DNA of 31,874 nucleotides. Origin: Gemmatimonadota bacterium (lineage in GTDB: Bacteria > Gemmatimonadota > Gemmatimonadetes > Longimicrobiales > RSA9). The DNA lies in the NCBI GenBank assembly GCA_040905425.1, contig JBBDRO010000078.1, positions 65,075 through 96,948 on the forward strand, in the 5' to 3' direction. This document shows, piece after piece, positions 18,001-27,000 of this stretch (position 1 is its first letter; the number at the start of each line of letters is the position of its first letter). A program made the position numbers.

Positions 18001-21000
18001 TGGCCAGGGGAATGGCCCAGGCCCGCATGGGACGCGCGCCGCGGCTGATTGCCAGGAGGGCGCCCAGCGCGAAGATTGGGAGAAGGACGGCCAGTACGAT
18101 GGGGAAGTGGACGATGGCGGGGTGCAGTGGATCTGGCAGCATGGTACGCTCCTTTGTCGAGGTTGCCCTGAATCTGGCCTCGCGGAGGGGCGCCACACCA
18201 TCCGACATCCGTAGGGCACGCCTCCCGGAATGCGTTCTGCCCGTGTATCTCCTACGGATGTAGGGAGGCGGGATGGAAGATCTGGCGTCGGGCCGCATGC
18301 GGTTCCTGCTGGCCATTGCTGTGGCCTTCATCATCATCGGCGGCGGCATCGATCTGGTGCTGGATCAGCCGGAGCACTGGCTCAGCTTCCACGTGGTCTT
18401 CGAGGCCATGATGATCACCGGTGCACTGCTCATTGCCACCACGCTGTGGCTGGGCTGGTGGCGGAGCGTGCACTCGGTACGGCAGCTGCGCCTCTCGCTG
18501 GAACGGCAGGCGGCCGAACGGGATGCCTGGCGGGCGAGCGCGCAGCATGCGCTGCAGGGGTTCGGGCAGGCCATCGACCGCCAGTTCGACGTCTGGGAGC
18601 TCACGCCCGCCGAGCGTGAGGTGGCCCTTCAGCTGCTCAAGGGATACAGCCACAAGGCCATTGCCCGGCGGACGGACCGGGGGGACCAGACCGTCCGCCA
18701 GCACGCCACGTCAGTCTATCGGAAGGCCTCGGTGCGCGGGCGGGCCGAGTTGGCTGCGTTCTTTCTGGATGACCTCATGCTGCCGGTCGCGCACCGCCAA
18801 CGCTAGCGCGCGTCGAGCTCACACGTCGGTGGGTGAGGCCCGGCCGGCAACGTGCGGACCACCTTCCGCCCGGCCGGCGTCCCGCCGCGGCACGAGGTGC
18901 AGCGGGGGCACATCCACGAGCAGATCGTTGCCGGCCGCGGGAACCGTGAATTCCAGACTCGCGGGACTGCCCTCGGCACCGAGCGCATCGAGCGAGGAGC
19001 GCGCCACGGCAATCCGATAGCGACCGGGCAGGATACGGCTGACGTAGAACTGGCCGTCGGAGAAGGTGACGGTGGACATGGGGGGGTGCGCACCGTCCAC
19101 GCTGGTGATCTCGAGCGTGAGCCCCGCAACGGTCGGGACGCCCTCCCCCGCGGTCACGCTGCCCGCCAGTTCGCGCGTGCGGACGAGCGGAACGTCCACG
19201 CGCTGTGCCGTGTTCGGCACTGGCCGCACGTACAGCGCGGGCGCGGTGGTGGTCAGGCTGGGATCGGCCGAGCGGGTGGAATCCACGGCCACAGCCGCCA
19301 CGCGATAGGGCTGCAGAGCCCAGGAACGATAGCGGCCATGCTCGTCGGCCACGACGCGCCTGCCGTCCACCAGGAGGTCCGCCGCGGGCACCGGCGTGTC
19401 CCCTGCCGAGAACGCTCCGTCCCCGTCCACGTCCACGAAGACCACCCCGTGCACACCGGCGTACCCCGTGCGGGCGGTCGGCTGGAAGGTGAAACTGGTG
19501 TCCGGGGCCAGTGATACGCTGCCGTTGAAGACGGCCGCGCTGGAGCCTCCGCCGCGAGGGCTGGACACGGCCCGCAGCGTAGTGCCGAAGGAGCCCCGGC
19601 GCGCACTGAAGGTCAGCGAGAGTGCGGGCCGCTGCTGCCCCCGGCTCCACTGCATGGCGGCATTGATCACGGCGTTCGGGGCCGTCTGCATGGACAGGCC
19701 CAGCTCGGCCAGCCGGATGCCGTGCCTGCCGAGGCCGAGCGCATGGCTCAGCATGGGTCGGTACGTGCGCCCGAGTACGTCCACCGGCACCATGAGGGAA
19801 AGGCGGCTGGTGAGCAGGCTCGGGCTGAGGGCGCTCGGCTCGCGGTCGAAGCGCGCTTCCAGGTAGCCGCGGCGAAAGCTGACGGCGGCGTTCAGCCGCC
19901 AGCGCTCGAGGCCGCTCGCCGCGCCGGCTGCCGCGGCGCCGACCCGGAGCTGGGTGAAAGGCTGCCCCTCCGCCTCGAGCCGCTCGTGCCACGTGAGTTC
20001 CGTATCCCAGCGGCGTGTGGAGTCCGGCAGGATCGAGACGGGTCCGAAGCCCGGACGGGACACGCTGCCGCGCAGTTGCGCCCGCGATCCTGCCCGCGGA
20101 AACACGGCCACGGCGCCGCTGTAGAGCGCACCTGGCATGAGCGTCAGCTCGCCGACCGCCCGCTGGCCCGTGGAGATGCTGCCCAGCACGTAGGGGCGCA
20201 GGTGATCGGCCACGGCATCGGCCACATGCTCGGCGCCGCCCCCGATGGTGAGGAAGGCCGTGGCGCCGTAGCGCACGTCCGCATGCGCATAGCGATCGCA
20301 CAGCGCGCCCACGCAGCGGCCGGCGCCCGTGGCGTACTCCAGGCTCCCCGCCGGCAGCATCGACGTGGGCGTCTGGTAGAGCAGCGTGGTGACGACCTCC
20401 TGGCCGGCCGGCCCGTACATGCGGACCTGCACGGGCGTGGCACCCGTGCGCAGTGGCACTGCCACGGCGTCCTGCGCACCGGCGGCCGAGTAGCCGAGCA
20501 GCACGTTGCCCTGGAAGACCTCGTACTCCCAGCCCGCGGGCAGATCGGGCTGCAGCAGCATCTCACCCAGCTCGGGGCCGCGCAGGAAGGGGCGGTTGCT
20601 GATTTCGAAGCCGTTCACGAAGCGCGAGAAGATTCCCGAGGTCACGATCTGGCCGGCGCTCGCCTGCTCGATGTAGCGCGCCGTGGGGAAGACGCGGTGG
20701 TAGCGGAGCGCAACGTCACCGAAGGCCTCCCGCGCGTCACGCCCCGCCGCCAGCGTGAAGCCGGTACTCAGATCCCCGCCCAGCAGCGCGGCGCCGGCCC
20801 GCGCCCGCAGCGTGGTCAGGCGCGCGGGGTCGAGGCCGCTCGTTGCCAGGTCCCAGTCCAGCACGCCGACACCGCTGGCGGACCGATACGGTACCGAATC
20901 GAGCTGTTCACGCCGTTCGCTCATGCGCTGGCGCGCCAGAAGGACGGCGCGGCGCTGCTCCGCCAGGATGGCCTGCTGCCGGGGAAAGGGTACGTCGCGT

Positions 21001-24000: not shown

Positions 24001-27000
24001 GATGCACCATGACGGCAGCGTGAACGAAGTGTTACAGCGCCGTAAGGTGCTAGAAGTGGTTGCGGTGGAGGGCTTTACGGATGGGGGCGAATGCGCCCGG
24101 GAGGGGTTGATCCAAAGAAAATCCGCCGCCGGCACACCGTCATCAGTGTGCCGCCGGCGGGGGGAGGCGCCGCTAGCTGCGGGCGTCGACCCGGATGTCC
24201 AGGGTGGCGCTGTAGGAATCCGCCACGGCGGCGGAGGCGGCCGCGGCCGTGATCGTGCCGCCGAAGCCCAGCGTGCCGGCCGTCAGGCCCGTGCCCACGT
24301 CCAGGTCAAAGGTCTGGGTGCCGCATACCACCGGGGTGGTCCACGTGCCGCTCATCTCCCAGGCGCACGTCAGCTCGACCGGCAGCGTGTTGGTCGGATC
24401 GGTGCCCACCAGCTGGGTGGGAACGTTGCTGAAGGTCACGGTGATGTCCCGGTTGAAGGACAGGGCCCGCGTGGTGGTGCCGTCCGTGGCCGAGATCACG
24501 TTGTCCGTGGCGCGGCTCAGCGTACCGAAGGGCAGATCGCCCGTGCCGCTGATGTCCATGTACCCCGCCACGGTGGCAGTGGCCGTCACCTGGCTGTTCT
24601 GGTTCTGCGCGTCCACCGCCATCGGGAATGCCAGCATCGTCACCAGCGCCGTGAGCATTGCCTTCTTCATCATGACCGCCTCCTCGAAAATGTCCGCTCG
24701 GTTTCTGTCCCGTCTTTCTGAATCGAAAGGTAGGGGATGCACCATGACGGCAGCGTGAACGAAGTGTTACAGCGCCGTAAGGTGCTAGAAGTGGTTGCGG
24801 TGGAGGGCTTTACGGATGGGGGTCGACCGCGGCCCGGGTGCCATACCTGCTGGCACGGGGTGCGCGCGGCCGGCGTTCAGCTCAGCAGGGCCAGGAAAAC
24901 GCCCGCGGTGACGGCCGATCCTACCACGCCCGCCACGTTGGGTCCCATGGCGGGCATGAGGGGATTCACACGGCCGTGGGTCTCCTCGGAAACGAACTGC
25001 TGGACCACCCGGGCGGACATGGGTACGGCGGAGACCCCGGCCGCGCCGATGCAGGGGTTGATGCGGCGGCCGTCCGCCAGGAAGAGGTTCAGCAGCTTGG
25101 CAAAGAGGATCCCGCCGGCCGTGGAGAAGGCAAAGGCCACGGCGCCCAGGACCAGGATCATGATGGTCTGCCGGGTGAGGAAGTTCTCAGCGCCCATGGT
25201 GCCGCCCACCACCAGGCCGAGGAGGATGGTCACGATATCGATCATGGGCCCGCCCGCGGTCTTTTTGAGCCGCTCCGTGACCCCCGACTCCCGGAGCAGG
25301 TTACCGAACATGAGCAGCCCCAGCAGCGGCGCGCTGGAGGGCACGGCCAGCGAAGCCACGATGCCCGTGATGATCGGGAAGAGGATCACCGTGGCCTTGG
25401 ACACCGGGCGGGCCTGCGGCATGTCGATGGCGCGCTCCCGCCGGGTGGTGAGGAGGCGCATGATCGGCGGCTGAATGATGGGCACCAGGGACATGTAGCT
25501 GTAGGCCGCCACCGCCACTGGACCCAGCAGGTGGGGCGCCAGCTGGATGGTGATGAAGATGGAAGTGGGTCCATCCGCGCCGCCGATGATGCCGATAGAG
25601 GCGGCTTCCTGGGCGGTGAAACCGAGCAGGTAGAAGGCGCCCAGGGCCGCCACGAAGATCCCGATCTGCGCCGCCGCGCCGAGCAGGAAGGTGAGGGGCC
25701 GCGCCAACAGGGGCCGGAAATCCGTAAGCACCCCCACCCCCAGGAAGATGAGCGGGGGAAGCAGTTCGGTGCGGATGCCCGCGTCGTAAATGACCCCCAT
25801 GATGCCGTCGGCATAGGATCCCATGTTGGCCAGCGGGAGATTGGCCAGGATCGCGCCGAAGCCGATGGGAATGAGCAGCAGCGGCTCGTAGCCGCGGGTT
25901 ATGGCCAGGTAGATGAGCACACCCGCGACGGCGAACATGGCCACGTTGCCAGGGCCCAGGCTGGCGAGCCCGGATTGCCGGAACAGCTCGATGAGGATGT
26001 CCACGCTACGCTCAGGCGATCGTGGCCAGCGGCGTGGTGCTGTCGATCTCGTCACCTGGACGGACGTGGACGGCCGTCACCGTGCCGGCCTGCGGAGAGC
26101 GGATGTCGTGCGTGGCCTTCATGGCCTCCACGACGGCCACCACCCCGCCTTCCTCCACACGATCGCCCACGGCAATGGGCACATCCACCACGTCTACGGA
26201 GCCGGCGAAAGTGGAAAAGACCTCCGTGCCCGCCGCGCTCTCCACGGCCGCGGGCGCCCCGGGGGCTGCCGCTTCCGCCGCCGCCGGCCCGCCTCCCCCT
26301 GCCGCAGCCTCCGCCACTGGCGTGGCGCCCGCCGGAGCCGCCGGCGCTCCCTGGCCGTTGCCGAGCGGCTCCAGGGTGACCGTGAACGTACGCGTCTTCG
26401 GCCCCTCCTTGACCGTGCAGCGGGTGGTGATCGGTCCCGCCGGTGCACCCGGCGCCGGAGCGCTTTGTGACGGCGCGGCCGCTGCAGGAGCGGCGGCGGC
26501 GGGGCGCGCCGGCCCATTTGTAGCGGCCTTGTCCGGCTTCAGCGGGATATCGATCTTGGACCGCCCCGTGAGCAGACGGATCCCCTCGTTCAGCTCCATG
26601 TTCTTGCCCGGCACCATGGAGGACAGAACCAGAAAGACGTTTTCGTCCGTGACCCCCAGCCCGCGCTCCTCCAGAGCCGCGCGCGCGGTGGGGATGTTGT
26701 TCGGCGCCGCGTCCAGCGGGTCACCTTCGAAGGGCGGCAGGTCGAGCTGCCGGGAGGCGCACTCCACCACTTCCGGATCCGGCGCCAACGGGGTCCGACC
26801 GAAATAGCCGAGCACCGCCTTGCCGTAGCCGGCGTCGATCTTCTCCCAGCGCCCGTAGAGGACGTTGTTGAATGCCTGCAGCCAGTACTGCTGACTGCCC
26901 GGAGTCACGCTGGTCCAGGCGCCGCCGGCCTCCACCACCACCGGGAACTCGGCCAGTACCTCACCGTAACGCTCCAGGATGCCGGCCTTGGTCATCATAT

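Follow-up and report, generated by a model that had tools for sequence, protein, structure and literature searches.

We find that six genes on the minus strand of a Gemmatimonadota genome very probably build a surface fiber by the chaperone-usher (CU) route, from parts too diverged for standard annotation. With good confidence, we read them as a complete CU operon from a DUF4402-type family that has diverged deeply and is nearest to the archaic (sigma) CU pili. In silico support for this reading comes from the predicted folds, remote homology, a gene order conserved among related loci, and a subunit dimer model with donor-strand geometry; we infer docking to an unusual usher N-terminal domain, the order of the subunits, and the fiber itself. 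The survey's finding was that the window (the whole 31,874-nt stretch analyzed here) holds a complete, unannotated CU pilus operon whose usher resembles FimD/PapC, whose chaperone resembles PapD, and whose subunits are of the DUF4402 type; fold and profile tests agree with this core claim, and all six minus-strand open reading frames were confirmed:

24173-24673, minus strand: g02472, 166-aa candidate major subunit, copy 2; putative diverged DUF4402/SCPU-like pilin with a signal peptide
23438-23938, minus strand: g02471, 166-aa candidate major subunit, identical in sequence to g02472
22870-23349, minus strand: g02470, 159-aa DUF4402-type subunit
22039-22857, minus strand: g02469, 272-aa periplasmic two-domain PapD-like chaperone
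21439-22032, minus strand: g02468, 197-aa DUF4402 subunit, its gene lying between those of chaperone and usher; candidate for a minor or tip role
18819-21437, minus strand: g02467, 872-aa outer-membrane usher of the DUF4402-type family, with a GTG start

The six frames are intact and closely spaced, with no frameshifts; from the 159-aa gene onward, the intergenic gaps are 12, 6, and 1 nt. All six proteins have signal-peptide-like N termini. The genome, which is 96.7% complete, contains one such locus.

Pfam DUF4402 matches the 197-aa g02468 (E 4.8e-7; 30.9 bits, above the 25.2 cutoff) and falls narrowly below the cutoff on the 159-aa g02470 (E 4.2e-5; 24.7 bits). A Pfam scan of the 166-aa g02471 gave nothing meaningful, and this protein had been called family-less. 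We reject that label: hhalign pairs its family with the DUF4402 subunit family (Prob 97.1, E 4.9e-11), a new identification that, judged by sequence, makes it a diverged DUF4402/SCPU-like pilin. Among 10 members of the 166-aa family, Pfam SCPU matches only 3 (best E 0.027); hhalign pairs the DUF4402 profile with an SCPU pilin from one end to the other (E 2.3e-4, Prob 44.7). g02471 has a donor-strand-like stretch, VTATATV, at its mature N terminus and two conserved cysteines (C103 and C117), and g02468 contains a four-Cys insert. The g02470-type subunit is the usual neighbor of the chaperone, with relatives upstream of the chaperone gene in 26 of the 29 loci for which upstream DNA is available (tblastn); the 166-aa type was found only in the nearest relatives of the window, L002-L009.

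A two-copy model of mature g02471 reached ipSAE values of 0.64, 0.63, and 0.63 (best of three controls, 0.00); among solved homo-pairs, 20 of 30 attained this mark, and among single chains, 1 of 23 did. Contact agreement across runs was at least 99%, and the partner pLDDT was at least 94. Residues 23-38 of one modeled copy run antiparallel to residues 146-164 and parallel to residues 39-52 of the other, which would place the N-terminal strand of one subunit between the first and last strands of its partner, as in donor-strand exchange. Model memory of solved pilins may partly account for the pass of the dimer model.

The DNA around the 166-aa genes contains a repeat and two hairpins:

23432-24822: tandem duplication; 23432-24087 equals 24167-24822 exactly over 656 nt, with a period of 735
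24123-24160, minus strand: GC-rich hairpin with a U-rich tail, 12-13 nt past the g02472 stop codon
23388-23425, minus strand: 17-bp GC-rich hairpin 3' of g02471, terminator- or attenuator-like

Each repeat unit comprises the subunit gene and ∼150 nt of upstream DNA. The claim of two identical 166-aa genes stands for the window sequence but not for independent contigs, which have one copy only. In a Logan contig from the probable source run (X1), position 23431 is joined to 24167, so that one unit is skipped and a single copy results; a contig from a second run begins with the single-copy junction letters. Positions 24088-24166 were covered by no Logan contig among three runs. Among the runs listed for this stretch, none was of RNA. 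The hairpin at 23388-23425 is terminator-like in the terminator scan and folds at -41.4 kcal/mol (z -5.51, equalled by 0 of 200 shuffles). That at 24123-24160 folds at -35.8 kcal/mol (z -2.39, equalled by 3 of 200 shuffles) and is not among the terminator-like matches of the scan. The 166-aa protein is likely the major subunit, given that its gene opens the operon, occurs twice in the window, and has a strong hairpin behind it. The two DUF4402 proteins of 159 and 197 aa probably take minor, adaptor, or tip positions, with g02468 a candidate for the minor or tip position.

These subunits might instead be handled by a CU-derived machine that makes no long pilus and exports or displays DUF4402 proteins in monomeric form, as short fibrils, or as a coat, much as with Myxococcus spore coat protein U and the Yersinia Caf1 capsule. 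Every subunit is small (the largest has 197 aa) and the operon lacks a two-domain tip adhesin, the SCPU family, to which the subunits are related, has a spore-coat protein as its namesake, and the ushers of some relatives, unlike classical pilus ushers, have OmpA, SPOR, or LysM cell-wall-binding tails. We nonetheless consider this alternative unlikely: the head-to-tail donor-strand geometry of the dimer model implies open-ended polymerization, and several subunit types (here three) together with a strong hairpin behind the first gene are as in pilus operons.

The predicted structure of the chaperone, g02469, has a two-domain fold (pLDDT 84.3), and every Foldseek match listed down to rank 20 is a CU chaperone, the best being CsuC (5d6h_A, E 3.1e-9). 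This reproduces the chaperone fold reported earlier, as does the lone Pfam match, PapD_N at E 0.038. VIA ranks SafB at Z 14.1 over 193 residues and CsuC at 12.9; two-domain chaperones as a group (Z 12.9-14.1) lie barely above single MSP/PapD-like domains (12.8) and WxLIP (13.2). Simple profile comparison did not connect it to known CU proteins, with Prob 11.6 against EcpB, Prob 6.4 against a sigma chaperone, and no CU match among PDB sequences at E ≤10. According to PMC4654587, archaic and alternative chaperones are marked by an invariant D1 proline and F1 arginine. The window family has an invariant P95 at the break that separates two short strands and an invariant R126 in the strand preceding a long loop, and these positions fit that pair. 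The chaperone differs from FimC/PapD in its greater length (272 aa), in a low-confidence loop at residues 135-149, and in that we did not locate the classical Arg8/Lys112 cleft pair in it.

The model of g02467, made from a 36-row alignment (pLDDT 85.4, pTM 0.69), likewise reproduced the usher-like fold. Every Foldseek PDB match listed down to rank 19 is FimD/PapC (best 3rfz_B, E 6.5e-25; ∼13% identity), and in an exhaustive VIA search, four usher entries come first (Z 18.5, 18.0, 16.7, and 15.2), followed by maltoporin at 13.3. Its parts are as follows:

21000-21347, minus strand: N-terminal periplasmic domain, residues 31-146, Cu_amine_oxidN1-like (model DSSP)
19509-20873, minus strand: barrel, residues 189-643, 24 predicted strands
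20373-20564, minus strand: plug-like insert, residues 292-355, between barrel strands 6 and 7
18888-19493, minus strand: C-terminal domains, CTD1 (residues 649-753, SdrD_B-like) and CTD2 (residues 755-850, CarboxypepD_reg-like)

VIA matches residues 189-645 to 3ohn_B (Z 18.5) and 2vqi_A (Z 18.0). In the model, barrel, plug position, and two C-terminal domains match the FimD/PapC ushers of type 1 and P pili; each C-terminal domain is a beta-sandwich, and the two are collinear with those of classical ushers. The N-terminal domain, behind which lies a long helix (residues 152-180), looks like Cu_amine_oxidN1 rather than PapC_N: Pfam Cu_amine_oxidN1 matches 11 of 36 family members (best E 6.9e-5), Atlas structure rows give TM 0.70 and 0.58, and neither Pfam nor structure search found a recognizable PapC_N docking domain.

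As reported before, the sole Pfam match in g02467 is CarboxypepD_reg at 757-814 (E 2.8e-5, below the cutoff), with no Usher, PapC_N, or PapC_C match at E ≤5. That the protein matches no usher family thus holds for single-sequence HMM scans but not for profile-profile comparison. The Gemmatimonadota-only profile is collinear with nine Escherichia coli K-12 ushers (hhalign E 9.1e-5, 569 columns), and a broader family profile aligns with them, again collinearly, at Prob 98.0 and E 1.5e-13. The broad profile lies closer to a sigma-type usher (hhalign E 1.5e-7) than to FimD alone (E 0.031, Prob 1.6); the usher profile gave Prob 0.08 against EcpC and found no CU match among PDB sequences at E ≤10. 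Moreover, a relative that matches the profile at E 5.3e-122 passes Pfam Usher (32.4 bits; cutoff, 27.1), and its cluster includes a protein named “fimbria/pilus outer membrane usher protein” at NCBI.

The operon belongs to a large, unstudied family that is common in Gemmatimonadota and Bacteroidota and is not unique to the lineage. An exhaustive profile search found 16,217 usher representatives at E ≤1e-3, 7,006 at E ≤1e-10, and 2,957 at E ≤1e-30; named members come from Balneolales, Rhodothermales, Bacteroidales, and Algoriphagus. These results refute the earlier count of 52 homologues, all from Gemmatimonadota, which arose because that search was word-indexed; an equivalent search returned 47. 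Full-length relatives occur in 79 of 301 sampled Gemmatimonadota genomes and 74 of 301 genomes of the Bacteroidota phylum. The chaperone gene lies directly upstream of the usher gene in all 29 related loci with upstream DNA (6 of 35 loci lack it).

Relatives with open frames that are 43 to 74% identical along their whole length, together with the six intact frames of the window, make it very unlikely that the operon is silent or a decaying remnant, even though our scan found no sigma-70-like promoter (the consensus may not apply to the host phylum) and the usher is in pieces in a relative from a Rubricoccaceae-labeled bin. It is scarcely credible that g02467 serves instead as an outer-membrane channel or receptor of a general kind, bearing carboxypeptidase-regulatory-like domains and unlinked in function to its neighbors: CarboxypepD_reg is its only single-sequence Pfam match, and TonB-dependent receptors, porins, SusC, and many other barrels reach Z 10-13 in VIA, but ushers score ∼5 Z units higher and cover the C-terminal domains too, the usher homology is collinear from barrel through CTD2, and linkage to the chaperone gene is kept in a second phylum.

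In the favored reading as a CU operon, Sec would export the subunits, and the 272-aa chaperone would cap each incomplete Ig-like subunit in the periplasm by donor-strand complementation. The usher would receive chaperone-subunit complexes, the N-terminal strand of each incoming subunit would displace the chaperone strand in the previous one (donor-strand exchange), and the plug would move aside for the growing fiber to exit through the 24-strand barrel. In sediment or soil, the probable role of such a fiber is in adhesion or the formation of biofilms.

Like the archaic pili Csu of Acinetobacter baumannii and CupE of Pseudomonas aeruginosa, the window system combines small Ig-like subunits, whose N terminus supplies a donor strand, with a chaperone of two domains and an usher that has a plug and C-terminal domains. 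Unlike archaic pili, with SCPU subunits, it has DUF4402 subunits, a Cu_amine_oxidN1-like usher N terminus, and no two-domain adhesin resembling CsuE. The Pfam cutoffs are cleared by a true sigma operon from a Gemmatimonadota genome (Usher E 9e-17, PapD_N E 5.1e-13, SCPU E 2e-28), whereas the window usher and chaperone fall below them. The range of archaic systems reported in PMC4654587 is Proteobacteria, Cyanobacteria, and Deinococcus-Thermus; carriers of the window family are Gemmatimonadota and Bacteroidota.

Uncharacterized kin of the operon are found in Bacteroidota as cassettes of DUF4402, chaperone, and “carboxypeptidase-regulatory-like/SPOR” outer-membrane protein genes, e.g., in Algoriphagus lacus (L049). 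Their ushers match the Gemmatimonadota profile over the full length at E <1e-116, and many have OmpA, SPOR, LysM, or TPR additions at the C terminus; the 166-aa subunit type sets the window and its nearest relatives apart from them. A. lacus has the same chaperone family (E 1.2e-54) and, just upstream, a DUF4402 gene (E 3e-12), in the same DUF4402-chaperone-usher order as in the window. A type IX-secretion-tagged 867-aa protein, absent from the window, is also encoded just upstream in Algoriphagus. In Natronogracilivirga saccharolytica, a protein that NCBI names an usher belongs to the same usher family.

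The operon consists of six open reading frames (ORFs) on the minus strand, at exactly the positions given in the survey's finding:

24173-24673, minus strand: g02472, 166 aa, identical to g02471 (ORF)
23438-23938, minus strand: g02471, 166 aa (ORF)
22870-23349, minus strand: g02470, 159 aa (ORF; DUF4402)
22039-22857, minus strand: g02469, 272 aa, chaperone (ORF; fold model)
21439-22032, minus strand: g02468, 197 aa (ORF; DUF4402)
18819-21437, minus strand: g02467, 872 aa, usher, GTG start 1 nt past the preceding stop (ORF; fold model)

Chaperone-usher (CU) pili are the textbook adhesive fibers of Proteobacteria, and these genes very probably form a real, complete predicted CU operon of a widespread, unstudied, and deeply diverged family. 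The mechanism proposed by the survey, a CU operon, is borne out by the predicted folds of usher and chaperone, remote usher homology, DUF4402-type subunits, the geometry of a subunit dimer, and gene order. Its Pfam figures were also reproduced: the usher matches only CarboxypepD_reg (residues 757 to 814, E 2.8e-5, below the cut-off); the chaperone matches PapD_N at E 0.038 (14.4 bits, failing the cut-off of 23); and DUF4402 (PF14352) is found in the 197-aa protein (E 4.8e-7, 30.9 bits, above the cut-off of 25.2) and the 159-aa protein (E 4.2e-5, 24.7 bits, just below it). The usher has no match to Pfam Usher (PF00577) at E ≤5, the two 166-aa proteins have no meaningful Pfam match from the single sequence, SCPU (PF05229) matches none of the window proteins, and an NCBIfam scan of these proteins gave nothing useful. 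All six products open with a signal-peptide-like hydrophobic stretch, as read from the sequence, and the G+C content of the operon region (∼70%) is the same as that of its surroundings. The genome (96.7% complete) has a single locus of this kind and, searched as a whole, no Pfam Usher match and no SCPU match at E ≤1e-5. No sigma-70-like promoter was found for the operon, though the sigma-70 consensus may not apply to this phylum, and no RNA run carrying the stretch was listed.

A word-indexed search for homologues of the usher returned 47 proteins, of which 36 were aligned and 11 near-duplicates left out; the named ones among the 47 are all from Gemmatimonadota or Longimicrobiales. The model built on the 36-row alignment (pLDDT 85.4, pTM 0.69) has an N-terminal domain (residues 31 to 146), a long helix (152 to 180), 24 long strands (189 to 643) with a six-strand insert after the sixth (292 to 355), and two beta-sandwich domains, CTD1 (649 to 753) and CTD2 (755 to 850). 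In PapC and FimD, a 24-strand barrel has its plug inserted between strands 6 and 7 and is followed by a pair of C-terminal domains, and the layout predicted for g02467 agrees with theirs in the strand number, the insert after the sixth strand, and the two C-terminal domains. With Foldseek against the PDB, the rows listed down to rank 19 consist of FimD and PapC throughout (best, 3rfz_B, E 6.5e-25, 910 columns, 13% identity). An exhaustive VIA structure search over 48,161 chains likewise placed four usher entries at the top (3ohn_B, Z 18.5; 2vqi_A, 18.0; 7lhg_C, 16.7; 6e14_D, 15.2), followed by maltoporin at Z 13.3; residues 189 to 645 superpose on the FimD and PapC pores with Z 18.5 and 18.0, and the alignments to 7lhg_C and 6e14_D extend over the usher C-terminal domains too. 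We rejected a TonB-dependent or SusC-like receptor as a reading, since CarboxypepD_reg is C-terminal, the strands number 24, and usher matches rank above receptor matches.

We searched 1.84 billion representatives exhaustively with the usher profile; hits number 16,217 at E ≤1e-3, 7,006 at ≤1e-10, and 2,957 at ≤1e-30, and the weakest tiers are bound to contain proteins with no more than the C-terminal Ig-like domains in common. The best 150 hits all have E <1e-116, and most match near full length. Among 45 of these 150 scanned with Pfam, only P0172 clears the Usher cut-off (E 6.2e-8, 32.4 bits versus 27.1), and two more match Usher weakly; OmpA tails occur in six and SPOR or LysM in others. 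Such C-terminal peptidoglycan-binding domains (OmpA, SPOR, or LysM) are present in many ushers of the family (P0060, P0072, P0095, P0127, P0156, P0183, P0180, and P0190), and classical ushers are not known to carry them.

The survey had called the usher family-less, a description overturned by P0172 and by profile-profile homology to E. coli and sigma-type ushers (sigma being the archaic CU clade with SCPU-type subunits). Single-profile methods reach little: Pfam Usher is found at E ≤1 in 4 of the 36 aligned family members (best, 0.022), and neither the usher profile nor the single sequence finds a CU protein at E ≤10 among PDB sequences. E. coli K-12 has eleven PF00577 places; nine of them make up our classical profile, with one that has an internal stop and one partial left out. 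In hhalign, the 36-row family alignment matches this profile collinearly over 569 columns that run from the barrel to CTD2 (E 9.1e-5, Prob 59.3), and a broader alignment of the window usher with 43 of the 150 listed representatives matches it at E 1.5e-13 (Prob 98.0, 581 columns). The broader alignment also matches a sigma-type usher at E 1.5e-7; for calibration, the classical profile matches that sigma usher at E 2.5e-11. Comparisons of the broader alignment with FimD alone (E 0.031, Prob 1.6) and of the usher profile with the single EcpC sequence (Prob 0.08) were too weak to use. From these comparisons we conclude that g02467 is a genuine though distant usher that stands slightly closer to the sigma type. 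CTD1 and CTD2 are collinear with the C-terminal domains of classical ushers in hhalign; in Pfam they come out as SdrD_B- or CarboxypepD_reg-like rather than PapC_C.

The N-terminal domain lies outside both the structural and the hhalign alignments, which begin at the barrel. Pfam finds no PapC_N match in the window usher or in family members, and Cu_amine_oxidN1 is found at this domain in 11 of the 36 (best E, 6.9e-5). For this domain, a structure search of the ESM Atlas listed Cu_amine_oxidN1 clusters (TM 0.70 and 0.58); a PapC_N cluster appeared as an Atlas feature match only (0.77) and is a lead at most. A Cu_amine_oxidN1-like N-terminal domain without a PapC_N match, as predicted from family sequences and the full-length model, would be the clearest architectural contrast between g02467 and studied ushers.

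The chaperone model (pLDDT 84.3, pTM 0.74) comprises two Ig-like beta domains, with a low-confidence loop (residues 135 to 149) ahead of strand 153 to 164. The Foldseek rows listed down to rank 20 all belong to CU chaperones, led by CsuC (5d6h_A, E 3.1e-9) and followed by more CsuC, EcpB, CfaA, FimC, PapD, SafB, and Caf1M; the first nonchaperone, at rank 21, is WxLIP. The exhaustive structure search gave SafB (Z 14.1, 193 aligned), YadV (13.7), WxLIP (13.2), FimC (13.0), and CsuC (12.9); these two-domain matches span Z 12.9 to 14.1, yet a single MSP domain reaches 12.8. In an alignment of the window chaperone with those of 24 of 29 related loci, PapD_N is found at E ≤1 in 11 of the 25 sequences (best E, 0.0025). 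The chaperone profile finds no CU chaperone at E ≤10 among PDB sequences, and hhalign against single sequences of EcpB (Prob 11.6) and the sigma chaperone (Prob 6.4) was too weak to use. According to PMC4654587, a proline that kinks strand D1 is the sole residue invariant across CU chaperones, and an F1-strand arginine that anchors the subunit C terminus marks the archaic and alternative chaperone classes. P95 and R126 are invariant in our 25 sequences; in the model, P95 sits at a strand break (91 to 94/97 to 100) and R126 in strand 121 to 133, places that would fit the D1 proline and F1 arginine by position only.

The survey had also treated g02471 as family-less, which does not hold at the profile level. 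An alignment of the 166-aa protein with 9 sequences from the related loci L002 to L009 matches an alignment of 26 DUF4402 subunit sequences (the g02470 family) over 114 columns (E 4.9e-11, Prob 97.1), and both families have a DLxFGxL motif and a GxYxAT C-terminal strand. Within the 166-aa family, Pfam finds DUF4402 in 4 of 10 and SCPU in 3 of 10 (SCPU best E, 0.027). The DUF4402 alignment also aligns end to end with the SCPU pilin of a sigma operon (E 2.3e-4, Prob 44.7), which hints at a distant DUF4402-SCPU likeness; the DUF4402 profile finds no CU protein at E ≤10 among PDB sequences. Because of the match between the two families, their common motifs, the Pfam matches, and the SCPU alignment, we assign g02471 and g02472, as predicted from sequence, to the same pilin superfamily as the DUF4402 subunits, as diverged members. 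Archaic (sigma) CU pili have SCPU subunits, unlike the window operon, whose subunits have no SCPU match.

In CU pili, donor-strand exchange lets the N-terminal strand of one subunit complete the Ig fold of its neighbor. We modeled two copies of mature g02471 (residues 23 to 166) with the 166-aa family alignment and obtained ipSAE values of 0.64, 0.63, and 0.63 (best of 3 controls, 0.00). Of 30 solved homo-pairs, 20 attain this mark, as does 1 of 23 single chains. Across runs, at least 99% of contacts agree, with partner pLDDT of at least 94. Residues 23 to 38 of one copy lie between residues 39 to 52 and 146 to 164 of the other, antiparallel to the last strand and parallel to the first in the listed pairs, so that the predicted geometry would be that of donor-strand exchange; this score may in part draw on solved pilin structures memorized by the predictor.

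In the window, the two 166-aa genes lie in a tandem duplication with a period of 735 bp: positions 23432 to 24087 are identical to 24167 to 24822 (656 nt). A GC-rich hairpin follows each copy (−41.4 kcal/mol, z −5.5; −35.8 kcal/mol, z −2.4). In a Logan contig of the probable source run, position 23431 is joined to 24167, giving one copy; a contig of a second run opens with the letters of the single-copy junction, and positions 24088 to 24166 are covered by no contig of the three runs searched (X1 to X3). Because De Bruijn contigs can collapse repeats and the junction sequence at 24088 to 24113 is unique, one-copy and two-copy forms may both exist; the duplication would reflect polymorphism in copy number or else the assembly itself. 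One related locus, L002, has two copies of the 166-aa type (4386-4946 and 5839-6399) that are identical over 561 nt and 1,453 bp apart, with a gene for a 197-aa-type subunit between them.

We compared 35 related loci, 34 labeled as Gemmatimonadota lineages and 1 as Rubricoccaceae; 29 have upstream DNA. By tblastn, a chaperone lies directly upstream of the usher in all 29, itself preceded by a DUF4402 subunit in 26; among related loci, the 166-aa subunit type is found only in L002 to L009. In the Rubricoccaceae-labeled bin, the only one of the 35 not labeled Gemmatimonadota, the usher homologue (L025, 8001-10475) is split over two or three frames, which may reflect a pseudogene, an error of sequencing, or mis-binning of the contig. 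Algoriphagus lacus (L049) has the order DUF4402 (E 3e-12), chaperone homologue (E 1.2e-54 to our chaperone HMM), usher homologue. Directly upstream of its small subunit genes, an 867-aa protein (131-2731) carries a type IX secretion sorting tail (Por_Secre_tail, E 2.2e-8).

The survey had found the usher family only in Gemmatimonadota, a restriction that the wider searches remove. Named matches listed for the broader alignment include Fodinibius, Aliifodinibius, Gracilimonas, and Halalkalibaculum, as well as Rhodothermales, Bacteroidales, and Algoriphagus; precomputed Pfam Usher is present on 6 of the 120 named matches listed. The P0172 cluster contains a protein of Natronogracilivirga saccharolytica that NCBI names "fimbria/pilus outer membrane usher protein," Candidatus Kryptonia supplies a further relative, and ESM Atlas clusters labeled Pseudomonadota and Fusobacteriota provide a lead. 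Of 301 genomes sampled from the window's phylum, 79 have an usher match at E ≤1e-20, a few of these being C-terminal-domain matches only; for the phylum to which Algoriphagus belongs, the count is 74 of 301 at E ≤1e-40. SCPU genes occur in 1 of the 301 genomes of the window's phylum (G249), which is absent from those matching the DUF4402-type usher profile. This genome, from the same order as the window, has a canonical sigma operon (L065, 1667-6283) with an SCPU subunit, a PapD_N chaperone, a Pfam-positive usher, and further SCPU domains; the sigma-type usher of our profile comparisons comes from this genome.

CU systems are classified in a scheme of clades from alpha to sigma. Tentatively, and short of calling it probable, we propose that the cassette is a distinct, ancient CU branch beside these clades, that it represents the usual CU system in the Gemmatimonadota/Bacteroidota group, that the docking N-terminal domain of its usher has been swapped for a Cu_amine_oxidN1-like one, so that subunits would be recruited unlike in every CU system studied, and that these are the first pili predicted for Gemmatimonadota. 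PMC4654587 gives the range of CU systems as Proteobacteria, Cyanobacteria, and Deinococcus-Thermus. Among the matches listed in our literature searches, in the parts available, none gives an account of CU systems in Gemmatimonadota or Bacteroidota, and those joining chaperone-usher with Gemmatimonadetes, by title and start of abstract, describe no such system. Searches for DUF4402 by name, and for archaic CU with spore coat protein U, found no literature.

The cassette turns up in roughly one in four of the genomes sampled from two further large phyla, under the labels "hypothetical" or "carboxypeptidase regulatory-like"; the capacity of soil, sediment, and marine bacteria for surface fibers and biofilms is therefore underestimated. 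The system can be tested in cultured carriers such as Algoriphagus and Fodinibius, and the odd usher N-terminal domain, together with the cell-wall-binding tails of relatives, is a natural experiment on usher substrate recruitment. Taken alone, the window is a modest result, one ordinary family member.

The neighboring genes for oxaloacetate decarboxylase alpha and beta subunits, biotin ligase, and a LuxR-type protein look to have no functional tie to the operon. Directly upstream, at 24877-29138 on the minus strand, are genes for the beta subunit of Na+-transporting oxaloacetate decarboxylase (E 1.8e-144), a biotinyl-domain carboxylase alpha subunit, and a biotin/lipoate ligase. A plus-strand gene (18273-18806), 13 nt from the end of the usher gene and convergent with it, encodes a 177-aa protein with an N-terminal hydrophobic stretch, as read from the sequence, and a GerE/LuxR helix-turn-helix (E 1e-7); we do not count it as a member of the system, since tblastn found no conservation beside related operons (none at 1e-3). 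Downstream of the LuxR-type gene, at 16704-18349 on the minus strand, lie genes for an Rce1-like CAAX protease family protein and a DUF2231 membrane protein.
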